Of a stretch of 43,865 nucleotides of DNA, positions 12,346-37,721 are shown piece by piece; the stretch's first letter is position 1, and each line of letters begins with the position of its first letter. Source of the DNA: a phage; the NCBI GenBank assembly GCA_032298335.1, contig GCA_032298335.1_4702.1, one strand, 5' to 3'. The translations under genes and the position numbers were made by a program. The notes below the pieces were generated by a model. The model worked only from the letters and a program-made list of their open reading frames with translations. It did not search any database and was not told the origin of the DNA.

Positions 12346-12366
12346 ATTTACTGGACACTATAGAAG
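12346..12366 (+). promoter_or_regulatory. Phage RNA polymerase promoter (ATTTACTGGACACTATAGAAG)
   Basis: Exact match to the consensus defined by the other copies in this window. Confidence 0.85.
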
Positions 12367-12432
12367 GAAAGCCTAGACAATCTAGGTTTATAAGGTAGTA
12401 TAGGTAATTAAGTAAATATAGGAGATATAAAC

Positions 12433-12810
12433 ATGTCTATGGTAACTACTCTGGTATTTGTAGCTCAATACTTTCGTGGTCTGGCTAATAAGTTCAAGTC
12501 CAAGGCTATCAAAGCTATTGAGTCTCGCATCGAGGCAGTACAGGCAGAGCAAGTTAAAGTTGAAGAACATCGTAGTTCTAAAATGATTGACCGCCATAAC
12601 CGCTACTATGCATCTCGTGATGACCTTAATGCACGCCAAGTCAAAGAGGTTGAAGAGATGCTGGCACGTCACCAGCAAGAGCGCGACAGTCTGAAAGCTG
12701 AATTTGAAGAGAACAAGGCATCCATCGCCCTTGTACACCAATCTGCATCTGACAGTCTGAAGAAAGAGATTGTTATGCTTGAAATCGAACTGGACAACCT
12801 GACCAAATAA
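12433..12810 (+). CDS. Hypothetical coiled-coil protein (125 aa)
   Basis: AGGAG ribosome-binding site; charged heptad-like sequence. Confidence 0.6.
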   Translation: MSMVTTLVFVAQYFRGLANKFKSKAIKAIESRIEAVQAEQVKVEEHRSSKMIDRHNRYYASRDDLNARQVKEVEEMLARHQQERDSLKAEFEENKASIALVHQSASDSLKKEIVMLEIELDNLTK

Positions 12811-12816
12811 GGAATT

Positions 12817-13116
12817 ATGATGGAAGAAGTAATTCAAGCTAAACATGTAGGTATCATTTTTCGTGATCTAGAGCAGCGTAAAGTTGCAGGTCACACTCGT
12901 CTGGCTAAAGAGGAAGACACCGCAATCACTACGGTAGAACAAGCAGATGCCTATCGTGGTCCGGAGTTCACTCAAGGTGAAACTTGTCACCAATTGAGCC
13001 TATCACTTTGTGACACTATGGCTATTGTAAATGTGCAAGAAGTCGAAGAGGGTGAGTGTGTCAGTTACATCTACCCTTTAGATACTATTGCACGCATTAA
13101 GGTAATCCATAAGTAA
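12817..13116 (+). CDS. Hypothetical protein (99 aa)
   Basis: ORF with a ribosome-binding site; no motif recognised. Confidence 0.55.
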   Translation: MMEEVIQAKHVGIIFRDLEQRKVAGHTRLAKEEDTAITTVEQADAYRGPEFTQGETCHQLSLSLCDTMAIVNVQEVEEGECVSYIYPLDTIARIKVIHK

Positions 13117-13135
13117 TTACTGGACACTATAGAAC
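13115..13135 (+). promoter_or_regulatory. Phage RNA polymerase promoter (AATTACTGGACACTATAGAAC)
   Basis: Consensus core CACTATAGAA; overlaps the upstream stop codon. Confidence 0.8.
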
Positions 13136-13276
13136 AATAGGTCGGCTTAGTTCGGCCTATGATTGTAAAGTGTTGAACCATTGTGCATCTTGCACAACCC
13201 GATACCGTATCGGGCTTTCTAGTGAGTACATGCTTGTGCTCAGTACAAAGCTAACTGACAATAGGAGACTAAATAA

Positions 13277-14083
13277 ATGGCACGTGGTGATTTTGATTTT
13301 GGTGCTTCCGTATCTAAAGCTGAAGGTAAAGTCTTTAAGAACCCAGAAGTAGGTGATCATGAAGCAGTAATCTCTGGCATCATTCATGTTGGTTCCTTCC
13401 AAGATATCTTTAAGAAAGGTAATACCACTGAAGTTAAGAAGCCAGCAAACTTTGTTCTTGTTAAGATTATCCTGATGGGTGACGACGATAAGAATGAAGA
13501 TGATTCTCGCATGGAACAATGGATGGCTGTGCCTCTGAAGTCTGGTGATAAGGCAACACTGACTAAGTTCCTGAATGCAGTTGACCCTAAAGAGTTGCTG
13601 GGTGGCTTCGATGATTTTATCGGTGAATGTCTGACTGCAACTATGGTTGGCTCTGGCGACAAGAATGATGATGGTACTTTCAAGTATGTTAACTGGAAAG
13701 GCTTTGGCGGTATGCCTGATAAGTTGAAGAAGCTTGTACTGGCTCAGGTAGAAGAGGAAGGTCTGTCTATGACAGGTCATATCACCTTCGACAAGCTGAC
13801 CAAAGAAATCCTTGATGACATTCCTGCTAACTGGGTGCGTCAATACTTCCTTAATGAAACACCTCGTGGTAAGAACCTGTCTGTTGCTGGTTCTCACGTA
13901 GAAGCAATCATTAAAGCTGCTCGTGAAGAAGACCCAGAGTGGAAGAAAGCCAAGAAGAAAGATGACGAGGATGCTACTCCAGCTAATCGTAAATCTCTGG
14001 ATACTGGTGAGTCTGTTCCACAGGAAGTACCTGAAGCAGAAGATACTCCTGCACCGGAGATGGATGAGGACGCGGAATATTAA
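13277..14083 (+). CDS. Acidic-tailed protein, candidate ssDNA-binding protein (268 aa)
   Basis: High-expression codon usage; acidic C-terminal tail ending DEDAEY; comparable in size and position class to T7 gp2.5. The functional call is an inference. Confidence 0.6.
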   Translation: MARGDFDFGASVSKAEGKVFKNPEVGDHEAVISGIIHVGSFQDIFKKGNTTEVKKPANFVLVKIILMGDDDKNEDDSRMEQWMAVPLKSGDKATLTKFLNAVDPKELLGGFDDFIGECLTATMVGSGDKNDDGTFKYVNWKGFGGMPDKLKKLVLAQVEEEGLSMTGHITFDKLTKEILDDIPANWVRQYFLNETPRGKNLSVAGSHVEAIIKAAREEDPEWKKAKKKDDEDATPANRKSLDTGESVPQEVPEAEDTPAPEMDEDAEY

Positions 14084-14092
14084 GGAGAAAGG

Positions 14093-14311
14093 ATGAAAGT
14101 ACAAATCGTAACCCTGCACTGCAAGAAAGGTGTCACAACGCTCGGAGGTAGCACTTTCCACTCTTTCTCCGAAGGGGAGATTTATGCTGACCTGCACTAC
14201 ATCTGGCGCGACGGACAGCACGTGGTGAACTACAGCGACCCAGCTACGGGGAAACGCCACGGCGTATCGCTTCCTGCGCATGACATTGCTCAGGTGAACA
14301 CAGTTTTATAA
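14093..14311 (+). CDS. Hypothetical protein (72 aa)
   Basis: AAGGAG ribosome-binding site; no motif recognised. Confidence 0.55.
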   Translation: MKVQIVTLHCKKGVTTLGGSTFHSFSEGEIYADLHYIWRDGQHVVNYSDPATGKRHGVSLPAHDIAQVNTVL

Positions 14312-14312
14312 A

Positions 14313-14328
14313 GTCTCACATGTGAGAC
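14313..14328. repeat. 16-bp perfect palindrome GTCTCACATGTGAGAC (copy 4)
   Basis: Exact copy, 16 nt upstream of the promoter at 14344. Confidence 0.9.
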
Positions 14329-14343
14329 AAATCGGTGTCCGGT

Positions 14344-14364
14344 ATTTACTGGACACTATAGAAG
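14344..14364 (+). promoter_or_regulatory. Phage RNA polymerase promoter (ATTTACTGGACACTATAGAAG)
   Basis: Exact consensus. Confidence 0.85.
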
Positions 14365-14415
14365 AGAAGAATTTTAATCGGCGATAATGCCACAACTAAC
14401 AAAGGAGAATTTAAT

Positions 14416-14790
14416 ATGTTCAAGATTGAAACTATCGTAAACCGTGTTGTTAAAGGTGCTGCTCTGGTATCCGTTGAGTCTTTCATTATCGTCGATGAAG
14501 CTGATCAACTGGTAGCTGGTACTAAGGCTTATGATACTCGTGAAGAAGCTCAGGCTAAGATTGACAGCATGGGTAACTTCGCTGCGGGTCTGGAGTTCGC
14601 TCGTGCTTGCTTCCCTGAGCAGGCTGACAAAGCTCAGATTGGTAAGGCTAATATCGTAGCTGAATATCTGGATTGGATTGCTGCTGGTAAGCCGGTGAAA
14701 GAAGTTAAAGCTGCGGAAGAAGTTGAAGCTCCGGCAGTAGAAGAAGTAGCTGCACCGGAAGTTCCGGTAAGCGAAGAAGAAGAGTTTTAA
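14416..14790 (+). CDS. Small highly acidic protein with C-terminal EEEEF tail (124 aa)
   Basis: Strong ribosome-binding site; codon usage like the capsid gene; net charge about -13; own promoter upstream and terminator-like hairpin downstream. Confidence 0.7.
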   Translation: MFKIETIVNRVVKGAALVSVESFIIVDEADQLVAGTKAYDTREEAQAKIDSMGNFAAGLEFARACFPEQADKAQIGKANIVAEYLDWIAAGKPVKEVKAAEEVEAPAVEEVAAPEVPVSEEEEF

Positions 14791-14801
14791 TTGATGCCCT
14801 G

Positions 14802-14828
14802 TCTGCCTTAGTGTAGGCAGGGTCTTTG
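14802..14828 (+). terminator. Candidate terminator hairpin
   Basis: Stem CTGCCT / AGGCAG (6 bp plus one G-U) with loop TAGTGT, then TCTTT. Confidence 0.45.
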
Positions 14829-14853
14829 CGTAATAGTTATTGTAGAATGAATT

Positions 14854-15144
14854 ATGCCGACTATTGAAGAACGTTTCCTGATTCACGTGAGCTTCTCATC
14901 CATACATCTTGGTTATCTTATCACTATTCTCTTAGGTGAAGAGATTTATCTGCATAACCACTTAATACCAGAGTATGTATGTCACCGAGATAAGATACAC
15001 CCTGCTAATTGGGCGAAAGAGTGGCTGCGTGAACATGTGCTGAAGGAGTGGCCTACATGCGACCAAACTTCGACTTCGGAGCTACAGTATCGGAAGACAA
15101 TAACCTGTTGCTGTGGCCAACTGAAGGTAATCGAATCGCTTTAA
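14854..15144 (+). CDS. Questionable ORF (96 aa) overlapping the exonuclease start
   Basis: Fills a 230-bp gap but has no ribosome-binding site and overlaps the exonuclease gene by about 90 bp in another frame. Confidence 0.25.
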   Translation: MPTIEERFLIHVSFSSIHLGYLITILLGEEIYLHNHLIPEYVCHRDKIHPANWAKEWLREHVLKEWPTCDQTSTSELQYRKTITCCCGQLKVIESL

Positions 15145-16085
15145 TAGATGCTGATATGTTACCTTACATCGTCGGGTATACAATCAGTGACATGACTTAT
15201 GTACGAGCTACAACTCGTGTTAAGTCAGGACAAGTCCCATCAATCAAAGATACCCCTGAGTGTAAGCAAGCGTGTGACCGTGTGAACTCCTTGCTTAACT
15301 CTTGGGTGTATGCAGCAGAGTGTGATGCAGCTAAGTTATTCATGACGAAATCAGAAGCTAACTTCCGTGTTCGCCTAGCCTTCACCAAGCCTTATAAGGG
15401 TCAACGTAAGACCGAGAAGCCTCCGTTCTTCTATGAATTGCGAGAGCATCTCTTAGAGGTTCATGGTGCAATCTTGGCAGATGGAGAAGAGGCTGATGAC
15501 CTCATGAGCATTGCACAATGGGACAGCCACCGCCGCTTCCAGCAAGATACAGGTAACGAGTTCCCTATCGGTAGTCCAGAGCATAAAGCATTCTCTGATA
15601 CTTGCATCGTTTCCTTAGATAAGGATTTGATGATTGTTCCCGGTTGGCATCTTCAGCCGGGTCAAGAGAAGAAATGGGTAGAGCCTATGGGTTGGCTTGA
15701 GTTACGCCGTAAGGCTAATGGTCAGGTTAAAGACCTTAAGGGTGCTGGCCTCATGTTTCATTATGCACAGATGATTATCGGTGATGATATTGATAACTAT
15801 GCTGGCATACCTGGACGTGGTGCTAAATACGCCTATGATCTTCTCAAAGATTGTAAGACAGAGAAAGAGTTGTACATGGCAGTGCTTGGTGCTTACAAGG
15901 CTAAGTTCGGACATGGACAAGTTAAGATTAAGAATTACCGAGGGGGTTATCGTATCGGCAAGGCTTTTGACCTGATGCTCGAATGTGGTCGCCTAGCTCA
16001 CATGGCAGGATTCAAAGGTGATATATGGCGAGCCGATAAGAACCCAATCTTGTGGGGAGATGATGCGGAATGGTTAGCAAATTAA
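15057..16085 (+). CDS. 5'-3' exonuclease (T7 gp6-like)
   Basis: IALIDADMLPYIV and GDDIDNYAGIPG parallel T7 gp6 ILVMDGDWLVF and GDITDGYSGIAG; GAAGGAG ribosome-binding site before the ATG at 15057. Confidence 0.9.
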   Translation: MRPNFDFGATVSEDNNLLLWPTEGNRIALIDADMLPYIVGYTISDMTYVRATTRVKSGQVPSIKDTPECKQACDRVNSLLNSWVYAAECDAAKLFMTKSEANFRVRLAFTKPYKGQRKTEKPPFFYELREHLLEVHGAILADGEEADDLMSIAQWDSHRRFQQDTGNEFPIGSPEHKAFSDTCIVSLDKDLMIVPGWHLQPGQEKKWVEPMGWLELRRKANGQVKDLKGAGLMFHYAQMIIGDDIDNYAGIPGRGAKYAYDLLKDCKTEKELYMAVLGAYKAKFGHGQVKIKNYRGGYRIGKAFDLMLECGRLAHMAGFKGDIWRADKNPILWGDDAEWLAN

Positions 16086-16480
16086 AATCATCTGAGGTAG
16101 CAGCTTATAAGAGGGAATTGCTAGAGAAGCAAGGATGGAAGTGCCCCCTATGTGGCGGCAGTCTCAAGGCTGTTACTCCTATAAACCGTGTACTTGACCA
16201 TGACCATGAGACAGGATTCTGCCGTGCTGTTGTATGCCGAGGCTGCAATGGTGCAGAAGGAAAGATTAAGGGTGTTATCTCTGGTTACGGTAAGGCGGGT
16301 AACAACCGTTACTTCCAGCTTCAATGGTTAGAGCGACTATATGAATACTGGAAGTTACATAGTACACCTCAGACAGATAAGTTATATCACAAACATCAAA
16401 CGGAGGCAGAGAAGCGCGAGGCTAAGAACCGTAAGGCACGCCTTGCTTATGCAAGAAAGAAGGAGGTTAAAGTTGGGTAA
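16070..16480 (+). CDS. Endonuclease VII-like Holliday-junction resolvase
   Basis: CPLCGG ... LDHDHETG ... CRGCNGAEG matches the T4 endonuclease VII zinc/catalytic signature. Confidence 0.85.
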   Translation: MVSKLKSSEVAAYKRELLEKQGWKCPLCGGSLKAVTPINRVLDHDHETGFCRAVVCRGCNGAEGKIKGVISGYGKAGNNRYFQLQWLERLYEYWKLHSTPQTDKLYHKHQTEAEKREAKNRKARLAYARKKEVKVG

Positions 16481-17480
16481 GCTTCGCAGCTTGTACAAAG
16501 ACTCCGAGGTACTTGATGCAATCGAGCAAGCTACCGACGAGAAAGGTAATGTTAATTACAATGAGATGGCACGTGTATTATCGTGTCACCCTGTGGGTAA
16601 GAAGATTACCCGCCAGTTGGCTCGATACTGGCATGGTCAATTCAAGAAGACCAAGAAGAATGGTGATTATTACCAGACCCTTCTGCAAGAAGATAAGCGT
16701 ATCAAAGAAGAGCGTAAGCTCAGGACTCCTGACCGCTACGAGGATTTGGCTATTGTACCATTGCCTGACTCACCTCATCGAAGTGTACTGGTAATCCCTG
16801 ATACTCATGCACCTTATGAGCATCCAGATACCTTAGAGTTCCTTGCAGCAGTCGCGGCACGTTACCGTCCAGACACAGTGGTACACCTAGGAGATGAGGC
16901 AGACAAACATGCCTTGTCATTCCACGATTCGGACCCAAATCTGGATAGTGCTGGCATGGAGTTAGAGAAGGCTCGTATCTTCATGCACAAATTGCACAAG
17001 ATGTTCCCTGTGATGCGCCTGTGTCACTCCAACCACGGCTCTATGCACTTCCGTAAGGCAAGCGCCAAGGGCATCCCTGTGCAATACCTGCGCACCTACC
17101 GTGAAGTCTTTTTCCCAAATGGAGGTGGCGACCAGTGGGGTTGGCAGCATACACATGTTCTTGAGTTGCCGAATGGTGAACAAGTGGCATTCAAGCATCA
17201 ACCTGCTGGCTCTGTCCTAGCAGATGCAGCGCATGAGCGTATGAACCTTGTGTGTGGTCACTTGCACGGTAAGATGTCTGTGGAGTACGCACGTAATACA
17301 CATGAACAGTATTGGGCTGTGCAAGGTGGCTGCTTAATTGATGAGTCATCCCGTGCATTTGCCTATGGGCGTGAGTCTAAATACAAGCCAGCATTAGGTT
17401 GTGTGGTTATTCTGGAGGGTGTACCTCATATTGTCCCGATGCAAACCAATAGCGACAACCGTTGGATTGGCAAGATTTAG
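16449..17480 (+). CDS. Calcineurin-like metallophosphoesterase
   Basis: Ordered motifs DTH (in VIPDTHAPY), GDEAD, SNHG and CGHLHG follow the DxH / GDxxD / GNH / GHxH pattern. Start is uncertain: ATG at 16449, or TTG at 16473 with an AGGAGG ribosome-binding site. Confidence 0.75.
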   Translation: MQERRRLKLGKLRSLYKDSEVLDAIEQATDEKGNVNYNEMARVLSCHPVGKKITRQLARYWHGQFKKTKKNGDYYQTLLQEDKRIKEERKLRTPDRYEDLAIVPLPDSPHRSVLVIPDTHAPYEHPDTLEFLAAVAARYRPDTVVHLGDEADKHALSFHDSDPNLDSAGMELEKARIFMHKLHKMFPVMRLCHSNHGSMHFRKASAKGIPVQYLRTYREVFFPNGGGDQWGWQHTHVLELPNGEQVAFKHQPAGSVLADAAHERMNLVCGHLHGKMSVEYARNTHEQYWAVQGGCLIDESSRAFAYGRESKYKPALGCVVILEGVPHIVPMQTNSDNRWIGKI

Positions 17481-17495
17481 TTGACACTATAGAAC
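17475..17495 (+). promoter_or_regulatory. Phage RNA polymerase promoter variant (ATTTAGTTGACACTATAGAAC)
   Basis: Closer to the SP6 form (ATTTAGGTGACACTATAGAAG); overlaps the phosphoesterase stop codon. Confidence 0.7.
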
Positions 17496-17579
17496 AAGGG
17501 CTAGGTAAGACTTTATCGGCTGGCGTATCCAAATGATATTGCACTAGCCCTTGATTGTATAGTGAATGGAGGATTCAAT

Positions 17580-18083
17580 ATGTCACACTATGAATGTAAG
17601 AAGTGTCATAAGTGTTATGATTACTGTACTTGTGGTCAAGAGAAAACATCTTTTAAAGTCGGAGACAAGGTATTTCGTAATGAAAAAGATTCTATTCCTT
17701 GGAATCAATTCTGCAAAGAAGCTGGTATTGACCCTGATAGCCCTGTAACCATAGATGATATTGATGGCATTAACTTGTGCTTTCGTGAGGTGAGGGGTAC
17801 AGGTTGGGATTCCAAAAAATTCAAACTTGCATCTGATAAGTTAGACAACAATATGGTAACTCAGCCTAAGCACTACGAGTTCTTTGATGGTGTAGAGGCA
17901 ATCACTATCATTGCCCGCAGTATGACTGAAAAGCAATTCGCTGGGTACTGCATGGGTAATGCCCTTAAGTATCGCCTGCGTGCAGGTAAGAAGTTCAATA
18001 CTGAAGAAGACTTGAAGAAGGCAGACTATTATAAAGAGTTATTCCAGAAGCATCGTCACGAATGTATTGATGAGGATATTTAA
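17580..18083 (+). CDS. Hypothetical Cys-rich protein (167 aa)
   Basis: N-terminal cluster CKKCHKCYDYCTCG; C-terminal conserved-looking block GNALKYRLRAGKK; GGAGGA ribosome-binding site before the ATG at 17580. Confidence 0.6.
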   Translation: MSHYECKKCHKCYDYCTCGQEKTSFKVGDKVFRNEKDSIPWNQFCKEAGIDPDSPVTIDDIDGINLCFREVRGTGWDSKKFKLASDKLDNNMVTQPKHYEFFDGVEAITIIARSMTEKQFAGYCMGNALKYRLRAGKKFNTEEDLKKADYYKELFQKHRHECIDEDI

Positions 18084-18084
18084 T

Positions 18085-18258
18085 ATGGAAGGTAAACTGT
18101 ATAGAGGGTACTTCGGTAACTTATATAAAGTAAGCTCTCGCGGTTTTGTATTGACCTCTGATGATGAAGGTGCAATGTGGCACCTAAGTGCATATGGTTC
18201 TAACTTAGCACACTTTAAAGAGGCAATAGTCAAAGGTGTGATGAAGGAGGTGAAATGA
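18085..18258 (+). CDS. Small hypothetical protein (57 aa)
   Basis: GAGGA ribosome-binding site; stop overlaps the ligase start (ATGA). Confidence 0.45.
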   Translation: MEGKLYRGYFGNLYKVSSRGFVLTSDDEGAMWHLSAYGSNLAHFKEAIVKGVMKEVK

Positions 18259-19202
18259 ACATCTTCCAATTCCTAGGTCTTCCAGAAGACCACCGCAATC
18301 ATCCATTCATGCTGGTGAAGCATCGCGGTGAAGTTCCTGAGAAGAAACTTACTTTTCCATGTTATGCACAGGTGAAACGAGATGGAATATTCAGTGCTGT
18401 TGTGGTGCGCAATGATGGTGCTGTTGCCATCTTTGGTCGTACTGGTAAGAAGCTCGCAAATGTTGAATCCTTGGAAAAGACATTTAGTGTATTTCCTGTC
18501 GGGTTGTATCTTGGTGAGTTGCAATCTATGGCTGTTGATGTTTATCTTGAAGCTCTGTCAGGAGTGGTAAACCCTAATCGTACAGAGCCACTTGACTTCA
18601 TAGGCCAGCAGATTAAAGACAACCTGTATATCGACTTCTTCGATATGTTAACTATTAAGGCATTCCATGATGGATTCACTGATGTTTCTTATCTCAAACG
18701 TTACGATGCTTTACATCGCCGCATCGGCGCTCATCTTAGCGGGTACAACGCTATCCTTCCTATTACTCCTTGCCATAATGAGCGAGAAGTTGAAGCGTTT
18801 GCGCAAGAGCAGATAGACGCAGGCCGAGAAGGTGCGGTATTTAAACTTGACGTGGAGTACGAAAGTGGGCACAAAGGCTATCGTCAAACGAAGATCGTTC
18901 GTATGGTATCTTACGACCTCACCTGTATTGGGTGGGAGGAAGGAAAAGGTAAGTATAAAGGTAAAGTAGCTAACCTCATTTTCAAATGGAAAGGAGGCAA
19001 GTCTATTAAGGCTATGCTGGGCCGTGGCTGGTCACATGAGGATGCAGCCCAAATGTATCACGATATTAAGCACGGTGGCGAACTGAACGTCATTGGGAAG
19101 ATCTTCGCTGTCAAGGCGTTGCAGGAATCTAGCAAGGGAGTCCTGAGACTTCCCAAGGTTTCTGAATTACGCCACGATAAGGAGGTTCCTGATGTTTATT
19201 GA
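18255..19202 (+). CDS. ATP-dependent DNA ligase
   Basis: KxDG adenylation motif (AQVKRDGIFS) and a later EGAVFK block analogous to T7 ligase EGLIVK; strong ribosome-binding site. Confidence 0.85.
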   Translation: MNIFQFLGLPEDHRNHPFMLVKHRGEVPEKKLTFPCYAQVKRDGIFSAVVVRNDGAVAIFGRTGKKLANVESLEKTFSVFPVGLYLGELQSMAVDVYLEALSGVVNPNRTEPLDFIGQQIKDNLYIDFFDMLTIKAFHDGFTDVSYLKRYDALHRRIGAHLSGYNAILPITPCHNEREVEAFAQEQIDAGREGAVFKLDVEYESGHKGYRQTKIVRMVSYDLTCIGWEEGKGKYKGKVANLIFKWKGGKSIKAMLGRGWSHEDAAQMYHDIKHGGELNVIGKIFAVKALQESSKGVLRLPKVSELRHDKEVPDVY

Positions 19203-19317
19203 TTTGAACGAAAAACAGCTTGAATTGTTAATAGAAGCCATTGAGCAATACTATTACATGTGTGGCTATCAGTCAGAAGAATTAGACTCCTTATATTCAC
19301 AACTAAAAGGAGGTTAA
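19192..19317 (+). CDS. Small hypothetical protein (41 aa)
   Basis: AAGGAGG ribosome-binding site; overlaps the ligase 3' end. Confidence 0.4.
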   Translation: MFIDLNEKQLELLIEAIEQYYYMCGYQSEELDSLYSQLKGG

Positions 19318-19319
19318 TT

Positions 19320-19517: not shown

Positions 19518-19527
19518 AGGAATGGAG

Positions 19528-19650
19528 ATGCTTGAGATGATTCTCAAGCCTTCTTCTCCTAAGGTGACTAAGACTCATGAAGAGTTAATCGTTGATGAGG
19601 TTAAGCGTTACATCATGGATTGTGTCAGAGCACAACTGGTGATCCAATGA
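19528..19650 (+). CDS. Small hypothetical protein (about 40 aa)
   Basis: Short ORF whose stop overlaps the acetyltransferase start; start codon ambiguous (19522 or 19528). Confidence 0.3.
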   Translation: MLEMILKPSSPKVTKTHEELIVDEVKRYIMDCVRAQLVIQ

Positions 19651-22804: not shown

Positions 22805-22825
22805 ATTTACTGGACACTATAGAAG
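22805..22825 (+). promoter_or_regulatory. Phage RNA polymerase promoter upstream of the capsid gene
   Basis: Exact consensus ATTTACTGGACACTATAGAAG. Confidence 0.85.
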
Positions 22826-22875
22826 GGAGAAATGTCTCCCTAAAATATCACTTTGATTTATAAGGAGGTTTATTA

Positions 22876-30948: not shown

Positions 30949-30965
30949 TACCTAACTCAAGGCTT

Positions 30966-30981
30966 GTCTCACATGTGAGAC
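30966..30981. repeat. 16-bp perfect palindrome GTCTCACATGTGAGAC (copy 5)
   Basis: Exact copy between the two large internal virion protein genes, followed by GGTCTTTA. Confidence 0.9.
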
Positions 30982-31012
30982 AGGTCTTTATGATAGGCAC
31001 TATGGAGGAACT

Positions 31013-34000
31013 ATGGAACAAGATATTAAGACTAATTGGGCTGGATATGTCCAGTCTACTCCTGAGCCGTTTTCTATTGAGGCGGCTCCGGTATCGGCTC
31101 CTACGATACGCCAGCGTAATGAGTTACAAGAGCAAGTTCTTGAATCTAAAGCTGATGCTGATATCTTAGGTGCTGTAGGTGCTGCCTTCCAGAATGAGTG
31201 GTTGGCATTCGGAGGCAAGCGGTGGTATGACCGTGCCACTGCTGATTTCACACCTCAACCAGACTTCGAGATACAACCTGAGCAACGTGAAGCACTACGT
31301 TTCAAATATGGTACAGATATGATGCAGACAATCACTGAGGGTGTTCGTTCTGAGGATGAATTGAACTTCCGTATTCAGAATGCTGATGAAGACCTTGAGC
31401 GCAATAAGCGCATTGCTCAGGCTGGCTGGGTTGGCTCTGTGGCGACGATTGGCGCTGCTGTGCTTGACCCTGTGGGATGGGTTGCCTCTATTCCAACCGG
31501 TGGTGCCGCTAAAGTTGGACTCGTAGGCCGTGCTGTGCGTGGCGCTATCGCCGCTGGCGTAAGTAATGCCGCTATTGAATCCGTATTGGTCCAAGGTGAC
31601 ATGACTCGTGATTTAGATGACATTATGGTAGCACTAGGCTCCGGTATGGCTATGGGTGGCGTTATTGGAGCTGTAGCGCGTGGTAGGGCCACTAAGCTCA
31701 GTGAGCAAGGAGATGACAGGGCTGCGAGCATTGTGCGCAGTGCAGACGCAGGGGACCGCTATGTGCGTGCTGTTGCTGATGATAGTATCGGTGCGATGCG
31801 TGTTAAGGGTGAAGAGGTACTCACTGAGGGTGCATTTGATATCTCTAGCAAAGGTGAAGATTTGCTGAAAACCCTACAGCGGGAAGGTAATGCAATTGAT
31901 ATGACCCCTCGCCGCTGGGCCGGAACTCTGTCTGCCCTTGGGACTGTCGTGCACTCCTCTCATGATGCTAGTGTTCGTGGCCTCGGTGCTCGCCTGTTTG
32001 AGTCTCCGCAAGGTTTAGGTATGCAAAAGGCATCTGCCAGTCTTATGCAGAATACCAACTTGAATCGACTGAAGTCTGCTGATATGAACCGTTTCAATGA
32101 CGGGTTTGACTTATGGCTCAAAGAAAATAATATCAATCCAGTTGCAGGCCATACTAACTCTCACTATGTGCAGCAATATAATGAGAAGGTATGGGAAGCT
32201 GTACGCATCGGTATGGATGAGTCTACGCCTAAGTCTATCCGTATGGCAGCAGAGGGGCAGCAAGCTATGTACCGAGAAGCTTTAGCTTTAAGGAAGCGCT
32301 CCGGTGAAGCTGGCTTTGAAAACATTAAAGCAGATAATAAGTATATGCCTGATATCTTTGACACTATGAAAGCTCGCCGTCAATTTGATAGGATAGGAAA
32401 GGATATAGATAAAGAAGATATCATTGAGTTATTCTCTCGTGCTTATCAGAACGGCGCTCGTAAAATTCCAAAAGAAGTAGCGGATGAAATTGCACGAGCA
32501 CAAGTAAACCGTGTTGTGGATGCCACTCTGACAGGACGTATGAGTTTCGAAAAGGCTATGTCTGGTCAGACTAAAGCCGAGTATGAAGCAATAATGCGCA
32601 AGGCAGGCTTCAGTGATGAAGAAATTGAAAAGATGGTAGAAGCTCTGGATAACAAAGAAACCAGAGATAACATCTCTAACCGAGCTAAAATGAGTTTAGG
32701 ACTAGATGTTACTCAAGAATACAATGGTATTCGTATGCGTGACTTCATGAATACCAACGTGGAAGAGCTAACAGATAACTATATGAAGGAGGCAGCAGGT
32801 GGCGCTGCATTGGCCCGTCAAGGATTCTCTACCTATCAGGCTGCACTTAATGCAATTGACCTTGTAGAGCGAAATGCACGAAACGCGGCTAAGGATAGCA
32901 AGGCTAGCTTAGCACTAGATGAAGAGATTCGTCAAATGCGAGAAGGGCTTCGCTTGATTATGGGTAAATCTATCGATGTAGACCCACAGGCTTTGTCTAC
33001 TAAAATGCTGCGACGTGGTCGTGACATTACAGGTGTACTTCGCTTAGGTCAGATGGGCTTCGCACAGCTAGGTGAACTTGCTAACTTCATGGGTGAGTTT
33101 GGTATTGCTGCAACCACTATAGCTTTAGGTAAGCAATTCCGCTTTACATCTAAGGCTTTGCGGAGCGGTGATGGCTTCTTTCGAGATAAGAACTTGGCAG
33201 AAGTAGAGAGAATGGTAGGTTACATTGGTGAGGATAACTGGCTAACAACCAAGGGTGCACGTCCAGATGAGTTTGGTGATGTAACCACAGTAAAAGGAAT
33301 GATGGCTCACTTTGACCAATCCATGAACTCAATACGTCGTGCTCAGACCAACCTATCACTTTTCCGCATGGCACAGGGTTCTCTGGAGCGAATGACCAAT
33401 AGGCAAATAGCTTTGTCTTTCATTGACCACCTTGAAGGCAAGAAGATTATTCCTCAGAAGAAACTGGAGGAACTTGGTCTTACTCAGGAGTTCATGACTA
33501 ATCTACAGAAGCACTATGATGCTAACTCTAAAGGCTCTGGCTTGCTTGGCTTTGATACAATGCCTTATGTCATGGGTGAAACTTTAGCTAATGCTATTCG
33601 TCGTAAGTCAGGTCTAATTATCCAACGTAACTTCATTGGTGATGAAGGTATCTGGATGAACAAAGCACTAGGTAAGACATTTGCACAGCTTAAGTCATTC
33701 TCTCTTGTATCTGGTGAGAAGCAATTTGGTCGAGGGATTCGCCACGATAAAATTGGTCTTGCTAAGAAGACAGCTTACGGGTTTGCTTTGGGTTCAATAG
33801 TGTATGCGGCAAAAGCCTATGTGAACTCTATTGGGCGAGAAGACCAAGATGAATATTTGGAAGAGAAGTTATCTCCTAAAGGGTTGGCCTTTGGTGCAAT
33901 GGGTATGATGAGTACAACTGCTGTATTTAGTCTAGGTGGAGATTTCTTAGGTGGCCTAGGTGTTCTACCTTCTGAGTTAGTACAATCCCGTTATGAGGCT

Positions 34001-34210
34001 GGCTTTCAGACTAAGGGTTTGATAGACCAAATACCACTAGTAGGTGTTGGTCAAGATGCATATCGTTTAGCAGATTCTATAACTAAATATGCAGAGGGTG
34101 ATGCAGAAGGTGTAGATGTGGCACGTAGGGTTTTACGCTTAGTGCCTCTAACTAATGTAATAGGAATCCAGAACGCATTGCGTTATGGCTTAGATGAACT
34201 GGAGGATTGA
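31013..34210 (+). CDS. Large internal virion (core/ejection) protein
   Basis: 1065 aa; position equivalent to T7 gp16; GGAGGA ribosome-binding site. Confidence 0.8.
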   Translation: MEQDIKTNWAGYVQSTPEPFSIEAAPVSAPTIRQRNELQEQVLESKADADILGAVGAAFQNEWLAFGGKRWYDRATADFTPQPDFEIQPEQREALRFKYGTDMMQTITEGVRSEDELNFRIQNADEDLERNKRIAQAGWVGSVATIGAAVLDPVGWVASIPTGGAAKVGLVGRAVRGAIAAGVSNAAIESVLVQGDMTRDLDDIMVALGSGMAMGGVIGAVARGRATKLSEQGDDRAASIVRSADAGDRYVRAVADDSIGAMRVKGEEVLTEGAFDISSKGEDLLKTLQREGNAIDMTPRRWAGTLSALGTVVHSSHDASVRGLGARLFESPQGLGMQKASASLMQNTNLNRLKSADMNRFNDGFDLWLKENNINPVAGHTNSHYVQQYNEKVWEAVRIGMDESTPKSIRMAAEGQQAMYREALALRKRSGEAGFENIKADNKYMPDIFDTMKARRQFDRIGKDIDKEDIIELFSRAYQNGARKIPKEVADEIARAQVNRVVDATLTGRMSFEKAMSGQTKAEYEAIMRKAGFSDEEIEKMVEALDNKETRDNISNRAKMSLGLDVTQEYNGIRMRDFMNTNVEELTDNYMKEAAGGAALARQGFSTYQAALNAIDLVERNARNAAKDSKASLALDEEIRQMREGLRLIMGKSIDVDPQALSTKMLRRGRDITGVLRLGQMGFAQLGELANFMGEFGIAATTIALGKQFRFTSKALRSGDGFFRDKNLAEVERMVGYIGEDNWLTTKGARPDEFGDVTTVKGMMAHFDQSMNSIRRAQTNLSLFRMAQGSLERMTNRQIALSFIDHLEGKKIIPQKKLEELGLTQEFMTNLQKHYDANSKGSGLLGFDTMPYVMGETLANAIRRKSGLIIQRNFIGDEGIWMNKALGKTFAQLKSFSLVSGEKQFGRGIRHDKIGLAKKTAYGFALGSIVYAAKAYVNSIGREDQDEYLEEKLSPKGLAFGAMGMMSTTAVFSLGGDFLGGLGVLPSELVQSRYEAGFQTKGLIDQIPLVGVGQDAYRLADSITKYAEGDAEGVDVARRVLRLVPLTNVIGIQNALRYGLDELED

Positions 34211-35172
34211 TGAGTTATACTTTCACAGAACATATAGCCAACGGTACGCAAGTAACCTATCCCTTTAGATTTGCTGGCAGGGATAAAGGCTATCTTCGTG
34301 CCTCAGATGTGATAGTGGAATCTCTTCAAGGTAACACTTGGATTGAGGTTACATCTGGCTGGCAACTAACTGGCATGCACCAGATTACTTTTGATGTAGC
34401 ACCAGTTGCAGGTTTGAAGTTCCGTATTCGAAGGGAAGTACAAAAGGAGTATCCATACGCTGAGTTTGACCGTGGTGTTACCTTGGATATGAAGTCTTTA
34501 AATGGTTCTTTCATTCATATACTGGAGATTACACAGGAGTTACTTGACGGGTTTTATCCAGAAGGATACTTCATTAAACAGAATGTAAGCTGGGGCGGCA
34601 ATAAGATTACTGATTTGGCTGATGGCACAAATCCTGGAGATGCAGTAAATAAAGGGCAGCTTGATGCCATCGACAAGAAGCATACAGATTGGAACGCCAA
34701 ACAGGACATTGAGATTGCTGGCCTTAAGGTTGGTATGACTTCTGGTATTGCGCACAGAACTGTTCCTTGGTACACGATAGCCAAAGGTGGTGAGATTTCC
34801 GTAAAACCACCTTATGAATTTCAAGATGCACTAGTTTTCCTTAATGGGGTATTGCAGCACCAAATTGTAGGCGCATACTCTATAAGCAACAACACTATCA
34901 CTTTCGCAGAGCCGCTTGTGGCGGGTACAGAGGTGTATGTGCTGATTGGTAGTCGTGTGGCTACATCTGAACCTAATATTCAGTTAGAGTTGAACTTTGA
35001 CTTAGTAGAAGGCCAACAAGTAGTACAGATTGGCTCTGCATTTAAGTACATTGAGGTCTACCTTGATGGATTATTACAACCTAAACTTGCTTATCAGGTA
35101 GACGGTGACATTGTTACTTTCTCAGAGGGAGTGCCAGAATGCCGGATGACTGCTAAGATTATCACAGCATAA
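34210..35172 (+). CDS. Tail-fibre adaptor protein (T7 gp17 N-terminal-domain-like)
   Basis: 320 aa; tail-attachment-domain-like N-terminus; sits directly after the core proteins, while the actual tailspikes are at the right end. Confidence 0.75.
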   Translation: MSYTFTEHIANGTQVTYPFRFAGRDKGYLRASDVIVESLQGNTWIEVTSGWQLTGMHQITFDVAPVAGLKFRIRREVQKEYPYAEFDRGVTLDMKSLNGSFIHILEITQELLDGFYPEGYFIKQNVSWGGNKITDLADGTNPGDAVNKGQLDAIDKKHTDWNAKQDIEIAGLKVGMTSGIAHRTVPWYTIAKGGEISVKPPYEFQDALVFLNGVLQHQIVGAYSISNNTITFAEPLVAGTEVYVLIGSRVATSEPNIQLELNFDLVEGQQVVQIGSAFKYIEVYLDGLLQPKLAYQVDGDIVTFSEGVPECRMTAKIITA

Positions 35173-35181
35173 GGAGGTGGG

Positions 35182-35376
35182 ATGATTAACTCAGAACCGG
35201 TAGATAGTGGTGTGAAGCTTGCGCCACCTGCATTAGTCTCAGGTGGGTACTTCCTCGGTATCAGTTGGAATGATTGGGTTCTTATAGCTACATTCATTTA
35301 TACTGTATTACAAATTGGCGATTGGTTTTATGTAAAATACAAAGCTAGGAGAGATAAGCGTGAGCGTACACAATAA
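35182..35376 (+). CDS. Holin (T7 gp17.5-like)
   Basis: 64 aa; LGISWNDWVLIATFIYTVLQIG parallels T7 holin FGLSLNEWFYVAAIAYTVVQIG; one transmembrane segment and a basic C-terminus. Confidence 0.7.
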   Translation: MINSEPVDSGVKLAPPALVSGGYFLGISWNDWVLIATFIYTVLQIGDWFYVKYKARRDKRERTQ

Positions 35377-35659
35377 ACATGCAGCTACAGAGGATGAGGT
35401 TGGCATTCTGCATGGTGCTATTACCAAAATCTTCAATAAGAAAGCACAGGCAATACTGGACACTATAGAAGAAGACCCTGATGCAGCATTACATTTAGTG
35501 TCTGGTAAGGATATTGGTGCGATGTGTAAGTGGGTTCTTGATAACGGCATTACCGCCACACCTGCTGCACAGCAGGAAGAGTCCAAGTTATCTAAGCGCC
35601 TCAAGGCTATCCGAGAGGCATCCAGTGGTAAGATAATTCAATTCACTAAGGAGGATTGA
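35360..35659 (+). CDS. Terminase small subunit (gp18-like)
   Basis: 99 aa ORF immediately upstream of, and coupled to, the large terminase gene; GTG start with an AGGAGAG ribosome-binding site. Confidence 0.6.
   Translation: MSVHNKHAATEDEVGILHGAITKIFNKKAQAILDTIEEDPDAALHLVSGKDIGAMCKWVLDNGITATPAAQQEESKLSKRLKAIREASSGKIIQFTKED
35451..35471 (+). promoter_or_regulatory. Internal phage promoter inside the small terminase gene
   Basis: CAATACTGGACACTATAGAAG: the 18-nt core is identical to the consensus, the upstream 3 nt differ. Confidence 0.55.
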
Positions 35660-37557
35660 TGGCTAAGGCAAGAGAATCACAAGCGGAGGCTCTTGCCAGA
35701 TGGGAGATGCTACAGGAGTTACAGCAGACCTTTCCTTTCACAGCGGAAGGTTTGCTTCTCTTTGCAGATACAGTTATTCATAACTTAATTGCAGGCAACC
35801 CTCATCTGATTCGTATGCAGGCGGATATCTTGAAGTTCCTATTTTACGGACACAAGTACCGCCTCATCGAAGCGCCTCGTGGTATCGCTAAGACAACACT
35901 ATCAGCAATCTATACGGTATTCCGTATTATTCATGAACCGCATAAGCGTATCATGGTTGTGTCCCAAAACGCCAAGCGAGCAGAGGAAATCGCAGGTTGG
36001 GTAGTTAAAATCTTCCGTGGCTTAGACTTTCTTGAGTTTATGCTGCCGGATATCTACGCTGGGGACCGTGCATCCGTTAAGGCGTTTGAGATTCATTACA
36101 CCCTACGTGGTAGTGATAAGTCTCCTTCTGTATCCTGTTACTCAATCCAAGCAAGTATGCAGGGTGCTCGTGCTGATATTATTCTAGCGGATGACGTAGA
36201 GTCGATGCAGAATGCTCGTACGGCAGCGGGCCGTGCCTTGCTTGAGGAACTGACTAAGGAGTTTGAATCTATCAACCAGTTTGGGGATATCATTTACCTT
36301 GGTACACCTCAGAACGTAAACTCTATCTACAACAACCTACCTGCTCGTGGTTACTCTGTTCGTATCTGGACTGCGCGTTACCCTTCAGTAGAGCAAGAGC
36401 AATGTTATGGCGACTTCCTTGCACCTATGATTGTGCAGAATATGAAGGACAACCCAGCACTGCGCTCAGGGTACGGGTTGGATGGTAATAGTGGTGCACC
36501 TTGTGCCCCTGAAATGTATGATGATGAAGTCCTGATTGAGAAGGAAATCTCTCAGGGTGCTGCTAAGTTCCAGCTTCAGTTCATGCTTAACACTCGCATG
36601 ATGGATGCTGACAGATACCCATTACGCCTGAACAATCTAATCTTCACCTCGTTTGGTACAGAGGAAGTCCCTGTGATGCCTACGTGGAGTAATGATTCCA
36701 TAAACATCATTGGTGATGCACCTAAGTATGGTAACAAGCCTACGGATTTCATGTACAGACCTGTAGCTCGCCCATACGAATGGGGTACTGTCTCCCGCAA
36801 GATTATGTATATTGACCCTGCGGGTGGCGGTAAGAATGGGGATGAGACGGGTGTGGCTATCGTATTCCTGCACGGCACATTCATTTACGTGTATCAGTGC
36901 TTCGGTGTGCCGGGTGGATACCGCGAATCGTCCCTGAATCGCATTGTGCAGGCCGCAAAGCAGGCGGGTGTTAAAGAGGTATTCATTGAGAAGAACTTTG
37001 GTCATGGCGCGTTTGAGGCGGTAATTAAGCCGTACTTTGAACGAGAGTGGCCTGTAACGCTGGAAGAGGATTACGCCACCGGACAGAAAGAGTTGCGTAT
37101 CATTGAGACGCTGGAGCCGCTCATGGCAGCCCATAGGCTTATCTTCAATGCAGAGATGGTGAAGTCAGACTTTGAGTCGGTACAGCACTATCCGCTTGAA
37201 CTACGCATGTCCTACAGTCTTTTCAATCAAATGTCGAACATAACGATTGAGAAGAACAGCCTCCGGCACGATGACCGCCTAGACGCCCTGTATGGCGCTA
37301 TACGGCAATTAACTTCTCAGATAGACTATGACGAGGTTACACGGATTAATCGCCTCAGAGCGCAGGAGATGCGAGATTACATCCATGCTATGAACACACC
37401 TCATCTACGCAGGGCAATGCTATATGGGGATTACGGTACTGAGCGAAGAGTGACCAACACTTCCGTAGCGATGCAGCAGCGAGTTTACGGGCAGAACTAC
37501 CGAAATAAATCGGCAAGCAGAAATACACTTTCTGCAAGGATTTCAAGGACTTATTAA
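35659..37557 (+). CDS. Terminase large subunit (gp19-like)
   Basis: 632 aa; ATPase N-terminal half and nuclease C-terminal half expected from size and position; ATG overlaps the small-subunit stop. Confidence 0.9.
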   Translation: MAKARESQAEALARWEMLQELQQTFPFTAEGLLLFADTVIHNLIAGNPHLIRMQADILKFLFYGHKYRLIEAPRGIAKTTLSAIYTVFRIIHEPHKRIMVVSQNAKRAEEIAGWVVKIFRGLDFLEFMLPDIYAGDRASVKAFEIHYTLRGSDKSPSVSCYSIQASMQGARADIILADDVESMQNARTAAGRALLEELTKEFESINQFGDIIYLGTPQNVNSIYNNLPARGYSVRIWTARYPSVEQEQCYGDFLAPMIVQNMKDNPALRSGYGLDGNSGAPCAPEMYDDEVLIEKEISQGAAKFQLQFMLNTRMMDADRYPLRLNNLIFTSFGTEEVPVMPTWSNDSINIIGDAPKYGNKPTDFMYRPVARPYEWGTVSRKIMYIDPAGGGKNGDETGVAIVFLHGTFIYVYQCFGVPGGYRESSLNRIVQAAKQAGVKEVFIEKNFGHGAFEAVIKPYFEREWPVTLEEDYATGQKELRIIETLEPLMAAHRLIFNAEMVKSDFESVQHYPLELRMSYSLFNQMSNITIEKNSLRHDDRLDALYGAIRQLTSQIDYDEVTRINRLRAQEMRDYIHAMNTPHLRRAMLYGDYGTERRVTNTSVAMQQRVYGQNYRNKSASRNTLSARISRTY

Positions 37558-37576
37558 TTACTGGACACTATAGAAG
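37556..37576 (+). promoter_or_regulatory. Phage RNA polymerase promoter after the terminase gene
   Basis: AATTACTGGACACTATAGAAG; overlaps the terminase stop. Confidence 0.85.
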
Positions 37577-37649
37577 GAAGGCCCAGATAATAAGAGAAAT
37601 AATAGGTAATATATAGGTTAACCTAGGTTATATAGGTATGCCTTAGTAT

Positions 37650-37669
37650 AGGTGTACTCCTGTACACCT
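37650..37669. repeat. Hairpin-forming inverted repeat AGGTGTAC-TCCT-GTACACCT
   Basis: 8-bp perfect stem with a 4-nt loop in the AT-rich leader after the promoter, followed by a tandem TACCTTAC x2. Confidence 0.7.
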
Positions 37670-37721
37670 TATTCATTACTACCTTACTACCTTACTATAT
37701 TTACATAATAGGAGAGAGACA

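Follow-up and report, generated by a model that had tools for sequence, protein, structure and literature searches.

AT-rich TAGGTA-repeat leaders downstream of phage-polymerase promoters at three loci of a Vectrevirus genome

Three loci of a Vectrevirus genome (K1-5/K1E/SP6 group), here named P0, P1 and P2, carry a cassette composed of a phage RNA polymerase promoter followed by a tandem array of 9–10-nt units (approximately ATATAGGTAAT). In the window (the whole stretch of DNA analysed, 43,865 nt) these cassettes are restricted to the three loci, and most of the relatives checked have them at the corresponding places. The AT-rich repeat leader is a real, family-wide feature, but it is not a shared folded RNA. 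That P1 and P2 have their first 19 transcribed bases in common is due to the same type of AT-rich TAGGTA-repeat leader beginning at each. By analogy with T7, our leading though still tentative explanation is that the leaders may be related dual-use elements, each serving as a 5' UTR and as a T7-type replication promoter.

Promoters and repeat arrays at three loci

The genome contains 12–13 phage-RNAP promoter sites, all on the + strand, with the consensus ATTTACTGGACACTATAG. P1 and P2 both show the feature of this promoter class, a conserved stretch of ~17 nt ending in CACTATA directly 5' of a purine start, and their orthologues are present in K1-5, K1E, SP6 and others. An 875-aa ORF (3128–5755) lies where K1-5 and K1E annotate the RNA polymerase gene and supplies the cognate polymerase gene. 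No transcriptome of the SP6/K1-5 phage group was found in the literature, and the +1 positions of P1 and P2 are predicted. The features discussed below are the following.

5848–6049, + strand: P0, the third member of the cassette family, 3' of the RNA polymerase gene; promoter +1 at 5865
12281–12318, + strand: hairpin upstream of P1, outside the P1 transcript (−19 kcal/mol)
12346–12362, + strand: P1 phage-RNAP promoter, −17 to −1, ATTTACTGGACACTATA then G (+1 at 12363), 3' of the DNA polymerase gene
12356–12381, + strand: 26-nt match at P1, −7 to +19
12363–12432, + strand: P1 leader of tandem AGG-centred 9–10-nt units, 5 C in 70 nt, the weakest duplex among promoter-downstream windows
12369–12389, + strand: P1 5' stem-loop, +7 to +27, 9 bp, loop CAA in this phage (−9.8 kcal/mol, z = −3.3)
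12433–12810, + strand: gp15 ORF, 125 aa, PHROG 7450, function unknown, predicted to be expressed from P1
37556–37572, + strand: P2 phage-RNAP promoter, −17 to −1, AATTACTGGACACTATA then G (+1 at 37573)
37566–37591, + strand: 26-nt match at P2, −7 to +19
37573–37655, + strand: P2 purine-rich, C-poor 5' tract and TAGGTA array (units at ~37601–37653), unstructured as RNA
37650–37669, + strand: P2 central GC-rich hairpin, AGGTGTAC-TCCT-GTACACCT, 8 bp, at +78 from +1
37670–37700, + strand: P2 pyrimidine-rich tract of inverted unit copies (TTACTACC x 2.8)
37708–37724, + strand: Shine-Dalgarno, (GA)n tract and gp41 start codon (gp41 ORF, 37722–37997)

The original prediction placed the two promoters at 12346 and 37556, which are the correct coordinates of position −17 in each, and the AT-rich motifs that it reported in the leaders are present (AATAGGTAAT at 37601, TATAGGTAAT at 12399). 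The P2 promoter overlaps the stop of the large terminase gene (35656–37557). P0 comprises a 5' hairpin (5871–5883), a polypurine tract with a TAGGT array (5885–5952), a hairpin of ~17 bp (5911–5969) and a second promoter (+1 at 6050), and is followed by the homologue of T7 gene 1.1 (6080–6208). Since the P0 array leads to that second promoter and not to a ribosome-binding site, the array cannot be solely a translation element.

The units are depleted in C and confined to the sense strand, with an invariant AGG core and variable flanks. From one core to the next the distance is 9 nt in 53 cases and 10 nt in 48, or else a multiple of these. Clusters of WAGGW occur only at 5901–5952, 12364–12423 and 37603–37653, all on the + strand and corresponding to P0, P1 and P2; TRF independently detects the P0 and P2 arrays. 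Seven of the nine other genomes checked have such clusters at all three loci, PM85 has them at P0 and P2 but not at P1, and phD2B, where the array is degenerate, has none. The P1 array ends in the gp15 Shine-Dalgarno (ATAGGAG, 12417–12423), and P0 and P2 each have a central hairpin with inverted unit copies on its flanks. The array leaders are the lowest-GC and lowest-C windows genome-wide, and purine bias is strong at P0, P2 and P1.

The match between P1 and P2, and conservation and folding of the leaders

The near-identity of 26 nt reported after the two promoters is real, holding at 23 of 26 positions (12356–12381 against 37566–37591). It is made up of 7 promoter bases (−7 to −1), 6 initially transcribed bases (GAAGGA) and 13 bases beyond (+7 to +19). 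The degenerate 26-mer has exactly two occurrences in the genome, both on the + strand, a count that is circular as a test because the pattern came from those two sites. As a re-test, we aligned the full set of 13 phage-promoter sites at +1 (78 pairs). P1 and P2 were identical over +1 to +6 and at 10 of 13 positions over +7 to +19, where the next-best pair reached 7/13 and the 78 pairs averaged 3.2 (sd 1.7). Only 10 other 13-mers genome-wide had at least 10 matches to P1 +7 to +19 (~2e-4 per position). Beyond +6 the match thus exceeds chance, modestly. It ends at +19 (11/20 over +7 to +26), and among the promoters of this genome only P1 and P2 have GAAGGA followed by RRCCYAG. The GAC at P1 +15 to +17 is derived and confined to a sub-lineage (the phage of this window, L004, L131, L132 and L138), K1-5, K1E, SP6 and others having GGT; in most relatives P1 and P2 are identical at 8–9 of 13 positions over +7 to +19. 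The 19 shared bases are six polymerase-related ones (GAAGGA) and, for the rest, the first repeat units.

The P1 leader is nearly invariant across genera. Compared with distant relatives, it is the 60-nt bin of its region that is best conserved, at 90% in cp4 (gp15 coding bins, 26–76%) and 86% in K32 (gp15 coding bins, 60–76%). The P2 leader changes more quickly than the coding sequence that flanks it, and in most relatives the arrays stay at the three loci even as their sequence turns over. PM85 has a promoter 3' of the DNA polymerase gene with neither array nor gp15, so the P1 cassette is tied to gp15 and not to the position. In phD2B a lineage-specific CCCATGTAATA stands at both P1 and P2, a sign that the two sites have evolved in a linked manner. 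With a covariance model built on the 5' module of P1, P2 of this genome scored 21.8 bits (a rough E of ~1e-3) as that module carrying an insertion of 32 nt. We conclude that the two cassettes are probably related by descent, with sequence exchange between the sites probably contributing, and that this is why P1 resembles P2.

The P1 5' stem-loop is stable in 7 lineages, with a stem start at +5 to +7 and a conserved outer stem (+7 to +11 with +23 to +27). Covariation among 16 distinct leaders (7:27 AU/UA/CG; 8:26 AU/GC/GU; 9:25 GU/AU) shows selection on it at the RNA level. Folding of 11 lineages gave the P2 central hairpin in most of them, at −12 to −15 kcal/mol and with differing stem sequences, which, judged by eye only, shows the same kind of selection. 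P2 has no 5' hairpin in this phage, its first 36–45 nt being unstructured (−0.6 kcal/mol), and the whole P2 leader has no conserved fold and folds no better than shuffled sequences (z = +0.34). As P1 has a 5' stem-loop and P2 does not, no RNA structure is common to both. Most other phage promoters of this genome are also followed by a 5' hairpin. Rfam gave no match at the gathering threshold over the whole window and, at E up to 1, only chance-level matches in both leaders. A common functional RNA motif made of the 19 shared bases is not supported: in P1 they supply the loop and the 5' arm of the hairpin, and in P2 they are unstructured.

These results divide two claims of the original prediction. 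It had held that conservation extends beyond what the promoter needs, such that the leader RNA may be functional: selection on the leaders stands (P1 bin, P1 covariation, P2 hairpin), a shared RNA motif does not. It had also described a short hairpin in each leader; both exist, but they are non-homologous and differ in distance from +1 (+7 against +78).

Resemblance to the replication promoters of T7

In T7, phiOL is an origin-associated promoter. When the 17 T7 promoters were ranked by the C count or duplex stability of +1 to +70, the top four were phiOL, phiOR, phi1.1B and phi6.5, exactly the origin-associated promoters. The T7 origins include phi1.1A/B, phiOR and phi6.5 (PMC8373140). By duplex stability, P1 ranks first here (0.1th percentile) and P2 next (0.7th percentile), and both have AT-rich, easily melted DNA directly after a phage promoter. 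Gene order agrees at two loci: P2 follows the large terminase gene, the position of T7 phiOR, and P0, with its two promoters, lies between the RNA polymerase gene and the gene 1.1 homologue, as phi1.1A/B do. For P1, which lies 3' of the DNA polymerase gene, the gene order of T7 offers no counterpart. According to a secondary citation of the SP6 genome paper, a bidirectional origin is located at the DNA polymerase gene, which adjoins P1.

Several observations speak against this reading. No sequence homology between the P2 and T7 phiOR leaders could be demonstrated: only PM85 reached z = 3.9, the others scoring 0.3 to 1.8. Purine bias, which would favour an RNA–DNA hybrid, is not validated as a metric because it is absent from T7 phi1.1B and phiOL. 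The SP6 primase recognizes 5'-GCA-3' (PMC2034472); this trinucleotide, present in the genome at ~20 per kb per strand, is absent from both strands of the P1 leader and occurs once in P2 (− strand) and once in P0 (+ strand). Cumulative GC skew is monotonic across the genome, with no origin signal, and no replication data for the SP6/K1-5 phage group were found in the literature accessible to the analysis.

In each cassette the array gives the genome its most AT-rich, C-poor and readily melted transcribed DNA, and it leaves the transcript largely unstructured. On the dual-use reading, the cassettes would be the SP6-group counterparts of T7 phi1.1A/B, phiOR, phi6.5 and phiOL: transcription by the phage polymerase into the AT-rich tract would open the duplex, and the transcript would prime DNA synthesis. 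The same RNA would form the 5' UTR of gp8/helicase, gp15 and gp41-43, with the P1 hairpin as a putative 5' stabiliser. The replication-promoter model gives no reason for a regular TAGGTA unit. As modelled on T7, it needs just a promoter and AT-rich DNA, so it predicts neither the 9–10-nt unit nor the near-invariance of P1; the latter suggests sequence-specific recognition instead.

Competing explanations and known systems

A possible but less probable explanation is that the leaders act purely at the RNA level, replication being uninvolved. The P1 5' stem-loop and the P2 central hairpin would stabilise transcripts, and the C-free, AU/purine-rich unstructured repeat tract would promote or control translation of gp15 and gp41, for example through ribosome/S1 loading or as the operator of a translational repressor. 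The P1 covariation and the variety of P2 stems, as signs of selection on RNA, argue for this, as do arrays that are restricted to the sense strand and start at +1, the 5' hairpins at most other phage promoters here, and a genuine P1 Shine-Dalgarno (ATAGGAG) in phase with the array. The P1 leader also outconserves gp15 coding sequence, as expected of an operator or translation-initiation region, and its cassette goes along with gp15, both being missing in PM85. However, pairing of TAGGTA with the anti-Shine-Dalgarno is weak (−3.1 to −4.9 kcal/mol, against −12.5 for a full site). A Shine-Dalgarno-like stabiliser (STAB-SD) or ribosome standby array would call for strong pairing with the 16S rRNA 3' end; 9-mers scoring −4 kcal/mol or lower made up 0.15 of P1 and 0.05 of P2, the genome-wide value being 0.09, which we judged to be no enrichment of either array over the genome background. 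Distances also argue against this explanation: the P0 array lies ~130 nt from the next start codon, with hairpins and the second promoter between, and the P2 array lies ~70 nt from its Shine-Dalgarno, with a stable hairpin between. Starting at +5 to +7, the P1 stem leaves more unpaired 5' bases than classical stabilisers do.

We consider it rather improbable that the TAGGTA units are binding sites of a sequence-specific phage or host factor coordinating the three promoters, whether on DNA (iteron-like), nascent RNA or the displaced strand. Through such a factor the arrays might mark and coordinate three regions where replication or transcription starts, acting either like iterons or as a leader RNA of ~100 nt that is bound by protein and ends at the P2 hairpin; this proposal we hold to be equally improbable. 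Regular 9–10-nt spacing with an invariant AGG core and variable flanks would fit a binding site, as would the restriction of arrays to three loci and their recurrence there in most relatives, the near-invariance of the P1 leader, the concerted change of P1 and P2 in phD2B, and the inverted unit copies around the central hairpin at P0 and P2. Against it, no candidate binding protein was found, the neighbouring genes being without informative annotation, the phD2B array is degenerate, and the period of ~9.5 is off the DNA helical repeat. T7-group phages are not known to use an initiator protein, and the T7 supergroup is generally considered to need no origin-binding protein.

Less probable still is that nothing beyond the promoter is involved, the match reflecting the initially transcribed sequence and residual common ancestry and the repeats being functionless slippage products. 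The modest match past +6 (just 10/13, ending at +19), its weakness in relatives and the faster change of the P2 leader than of flanking coding sequence are consistent with this. It does not explain why arrays persist at three loci in most relatives despite turnover, why the P1 leader outconserves adjacent coding sequence, or why the hairpins vary in a compensatory manner.

That the leaders are RNase III processing sites, cleavage at which the original prediction had proposed to map, is very unlikely and unsupported computationally: P0 has the hairpin of ~17 bp, the purine and pyrimidine tracts of K44 P2 could pair into a helix of ~21 bp, and in T7 an RNase III site lies next to the primary origin, but the leader hairpins reach just 9 bp (P1) and 8 bp (P2), the long-range P2 helix is not conserved, the P1 and P2 transcripts contain neither an irregular stem of ~20 bp nor a conserved long helix, and a far better candidate is the hairpin upstream of P1, which the P1 transcript does not include. 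Both arms of this hairpin (12281–12318) are near-identical to those of the T7 hairpin at 5855–5895, between phi1.1A and phi1.1B, which we take to be the R1.1 RNase III site.

If the dual-use reading is true, replication start regions of the SP6/K1-5 group, which includes therapeutic K1 and Klebsiella phages, could be located by sequence alone. Since the lowest-C or weakest-duplex criterion recovers the known T7 origin promoters, it is usable on further phages that encode a single-subunit polymerase of their own. For users of SP6-type promoters, GAAGGA belongs with the promoter and the further bases are a separable leader. The compact, conserved 5' hairpin of P1 is a candidate transcript-stabilising element, and the TAGGTA unit, persisting at the same loci amid turnover, offers a concrete target for a binding-factor search.

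From −17 to +1, P1 and P2 fit the SP6/K1-5 promoter family, with a purine-rich GAAGNN over +1 to +6 as in the SP6 promoter (ATTTAGGTGACACTATAGAAG), but their match runs to +19, past the initially transcribed region. The conserved, covariation-supported P1 hairpin close to the 5' end resembles 5' stem-loop mRNA stabilisers such as the E. coli ompA and T7 gene 10 leaders. In these the stem lies within 2–4 nt of the end, whereas that of P1 begins at +5 to +7, and P2 has no such hairpin. The arrays recall the iterons of plasmid and phage origins in being tandem direct repeats beside AT-rich DNA with inverted copies nearby; they differ in their short (9–10 nt), contiguous, degenerate units, in having no known initiator protein, and in being transcribed and strand-asymmetric. 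The hairpin upstream of P1 matches T7 R1.1 almost base for base in its arms (ACTCAAGGTCA ... GAGTGGCCTTTATG) and, like it, stands just 5' of a promoter with an AT-rich leader, but this putative cleavage site lies outside the P1 leader and was found only in Vectrevirus members. With the replication promoters of T7 the cassettes share a promoter followed by the most AT-rich, C-poor, weakest-duplex leader DNA, and leaders that also serve small genes as 5' UTRs. A short recurring motif (CTTAAG / CTTTAAG) is present in T7 leaders too. The tract here differs in being a regular 9–10-nt TAGGTA array with purine bias.

Promoters and the stretch shared by two leaders

In BLAST searches, Vectrevirus genomes (K1-5, K1E and relatives) matched both the P1 and P2 promoter regions at 92–98% identity, and SP6-like phages were more distant matches. 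The window represents approximately an entire genome, with every long ORF on the + strand. Its last ~130 bases (43738-43865) correspond to the first ~125 bases of the K1-5 genome, a terminal repeat, so, compared with where the genome truly ends, the window is slightly permuted. A core search of the window identified 12–13 SP6-type promoter sites on the + strand (consensus ATTTACTGGACACTATA followed by G); the three whose leaders are built from short repeats are listed here, together with a hairpin near P1:

P0, +1 at 5865, + strand: promoter after the RNA polymerase gene, its leader array lying between two promoters
Hairpin, 12281-12318: -19 kcal/mol, ~35 nt upstream of the P1 promoter and outside its leader
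P1, +1 at 12363, + strand: promoter following the DNA polymerase gene (9484-12063) and preceding the gp15 ORF (125 aa)
P2, +1 at 37573, + strand: promoter sharing bases with the large terminase stop codon (gene at 35656-37557), upstream of gp41, gp42 and the endolysin gene

A full promoter match also lies within coding sequence at 35451-35467 (+1 = 35468), close to the genes for the holin and the small terminase, and is conserved in K1-5, K1E and P433.1; a weaker promoter-like match at 38631 on the - strand is probably due to chance. The palindrome GTCTCACATGTGAGAC precedes each of the two P0 promoters (5838-5853 and 6015-6030); in K1-5 and P433.1 a similar one, GTCTCACATGTGAGACAGG, is found after another promoter. 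In K1E (L002), phD2B (L008) and P433.1 (L010) a homing endonuclease gene interrupts the large terminase gene (40A / 40.5 / 40B); the window's copy is intact.

For comparison, ten whole genomes from at least five genera were fetched and protein-anchored loci from viral contigs were added, yielding P1 and P2 orthologues across Molineuxvirinae. Scanning viral contigs for a 14-base pattern yielded largely chance hits; protein-anchored retrieval did better.

The original prediction was that P1 and P2 share a near-identical stretch of 26 nt extending well beyond the promoter. We confirmed this stretch at exactly 12356-12381 and 37566-37591 (23 of 26 positions). It runs from -7 to +19 and includes seven promoter bases, the six initially transcribed bases GAAGGA and the remainder. 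When promoters were aligned on +1, P1 and P2 were identical at 10 of 13 positions over +7 to +19, against 7 of 13 for the next-best of 78 pairs (mean 3.2, s.d. 1.7), and only 10 other 13-mers genome-wide match this part of P1 equally well. Beyond +19 the two leaders diverge (11/20 identical over +7 to +26). The near-identity beyond the promoter is therefore real but modest, and on sequence comparison it is partly lineage-specific: P1 carries GAC at +15 to +17 in the window and GGT in K1-5, K1E, SP6, cp4 and others. The GAC variant lengthens the P1 hairpin and also happens to increase the likeness to P2. Since both leaders in every genome open with GAAGGA (or GGAGGA) and pass through RRCC-N-AG into AGG-centred units, the 19 shared transcribed bases comprise the initially transcribed sequence and, after it, the opening units of a leader made of repeats.

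The two leaders differ in how well they are conserved among relatives. Of the 60-nt bins in its region, that of the P1 leader is the most conserved, at 90% versus cp4 and 86% versus K32, against 26–76% and 60–76%, respectively, for the gp15 coding bins. Conservation of the P2 leader falls below that of the terminase coding sequence (40–56% versus SP6); here the architecture is kept and the sequence is not. Ahead of gp41, a (GA)n tract separating the Shine-Dalgarno sequence from the start codon (37708-37724) varies from one to eight copies among close relatives (L002, L144-L161), with three in the window and eight in K1E. Because copy number shifts the Shine-Dalgarno-to-ATG spacing by up to ~14 nt, the tract may act as a slippage-prone tuner of gp41 translation.

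Repeat arrays and base composition

Across P0, P1 and P2 of the ten genomes, successive WAGG cores were 9 nt apart in 53 cases and 10 nt apart in 48, the rest being mostly multiples, and the repeat unit approximates ATATAGGTAAT. Within the window, clusters of at least four WAGGW with gaps of at most 20 nt are confined to three stretches of the + strand: 5901-5952, 12364-12423 and 37603-37653. TRF independently called the arrays at P0 and P2. The same three loci carry clusters in seven of the nine other genomes; PM85 lacks the one at P1, and phD2B has none. No other part of the genome is as low in GC or as depleted of C as these three leaders (1–5 C per 70 nt, versus a mean of 14).

A different array, at 15-160 and 280-360, consists of CTTAGT(G) units spaced ~10–13 nt apart and adjoins the terminal repeat. 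It resembles the short repeat arrays that adjoin the terminal repeats of T7. One copy of this type (GCCTTAGT) lies inside the P2 leader at 37639-37646, and TTAGGTTAACCTTAG at 45-59 is similar to ATAGGTTAACCTAGG in P2.

RNA structure in and around the leaders

The P1 leader folds near its 5' end into a stem-loop at +7 to +27 (-9.8 kcal/mol, z = -3.3), and each of the seven lineages tested gave a stable hairpin here (-6.4 to -13.1 kcal/mol). Across 16 different P1 leader sequences, pair 7:27 is found as AU, UA and CG, pair 8:26 as AU, GC (four times) and GU, and pair 9:25 as GU and AU. The observed covariation score was reached by none of 500 shuffles and collapsed in shifted registers.

The first 36–45 nt of P2 are unstructured (0 to -2 kcal/mol) in Vectrevirus, Zindervirus and Klebsiella phages, a weak hairpin being kept only by PM85, phD2B and PP1. 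A GC-rich hairpin at 37650-37669, ~80 nt downstream, is followed by a pyrimidine tract of inverted repeat units; judged by eye, it is present in most folded lineages at -12 to -15 kcal/mol with differing stem sequences. The P2 leader as a whole gave no consensus fold and folded no better than shuffles. No Rfam family matched: nothing in the whole window reached the gathering threshold, and allowing E up to 1 gave only chance-level hits in the P1 and P2 leaders. When a covariance model was built from the P1 5' module, it matched the window P2 (21.8 bits, E roughly 1e-3) with a 32-nt loop insertion, which is consistent with common descent. In phD2B, CCCATGTAATA replaces CCTAGGTAAT in both P1 and P2, a joint change that points to exchange between the sites or to a shared constraint.

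Most other phage promoters have their own 5' hairpin (22822-22845, 13137-13160, 17498-17555, 39255-39283 and 1790-1823), and the GGGAGA-AATG-TCTCCC hairpin of the capsid-gene leader shows compensatory changes in SP6 (GGGAGG..CCTCCC) and cp4. The hairpin upstream of P1 is confined to Vectrevirus members. Both of its arms are nearly identical to those of the T7 hairpin between phi1.1A and phi1.1B (ACTCAAGGTCA ... GAGTGGCCTTTATG), which we take to be the R1.1 RNase III site. Its motif GAGTGGCCTTT is found again at 5778, within the hairpin that follows the RNA polymerase gene. The sequence YYWTGATTGTA, which resembles the T7 R1.1 cleavage region, closes the leaders of two further promoters, those at 13132 and 17492.

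Candidate functions and comparison with T7

T7 replication starts at phi1.1A/B, with secondary origins at phiOR and phi6.5; every T7 origin requires a T7 promoter, and phiOR plasmid replication is consistent with R-loop priming (PMC8373140). Over the first 70–80 transcribed bases, the C count, GC content and duplex stability of the 17 annotated T7 promoters were ranked, lowest first, and phiOL, phiOR, phi1.1B and phi6.5 came out as the top four. In the window, P1 (0.1th percentile) and P2 (0.7th percentile) rank first for weakness of the duplex, and P0, P1 and P2 for low C count. By gene order, P0 corresponds to the position of phi1.1A/B, the gene following it starting with MRNFEKMT and resembling T7 gene 1.1, and P2 to that of phiOR, immediately after the large terminase gene. 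P1 is adjoined by the DNA polymerase gene, at which a bidirectional origin was proposed according to a secondary citation of the SP6 genome paper.

Our preferred reading, tentative and falling a little short of an even chance, is that these are T7-like dual-use cassettes. Each would combine a promoter with an easily melted AT-rich leader that doubles as 5' UTR and likely replication start region, and the P1 and P2 hairpins would be RNA-level elements superimposed on it. The main rival is that the leaders act only as RNA, in transcript stability or in controlling translation. It draws on the covariation, on how strongly the P1 leader is conserved and on the association of the P1 cassette with gp15; we regard it as rather unlikely. 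Neither of these accounts for the regular TAGGTA unit, which leaves room for a putative binding factor recognising it, an explanation we consider quite improbable.

Other mechanisms were rejected. A Shine-Dalgarno-like array (STAB-SD or standby site) was discarded as the main role because anti-Shine-Dalgarno binding is weak and the units are not enriched in P1 or P2; moreover, no start codon lies close to the P0 array. GCA, the SP6 primase recognition sequence (PMC2034472), is missing from the repeat unit and nearly absent from the leaders. RNase III sites inside the P1 and P2 leaders were dismissed, the stems being too short and no long helix conserved. Sequence homology between T7 phiOR and the P2 leader reached z = 3.9 for PM85 only and was not significant for five others. 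RNA-DNA hybrid stability, calculated with nearest-neighbour parameters, is extreme at P0, P2 and P1 but not at T7 phi1.1B and phiOL, and was therefore not used as evidence. Cumulative GC skew of the window was monotonic, without inflection, and our literature search found no transcriptome or origin mapping for the SP6/K1-5 group.

As for the proposed dual-use cassettes, the literature searched gave no description of SP6-group leaders at three particular promoters built from a regular 9–10-nt unit, of such arrays limited to three loci and recurring there in most relatives, or of the same composition criterion recovering the T7 origin promoters. The T7 supergroup is already known to have AT-rich origin leaders next to promoters, hairpins that stabilise 5' ends, and initially transcribed sequences rich in purines.
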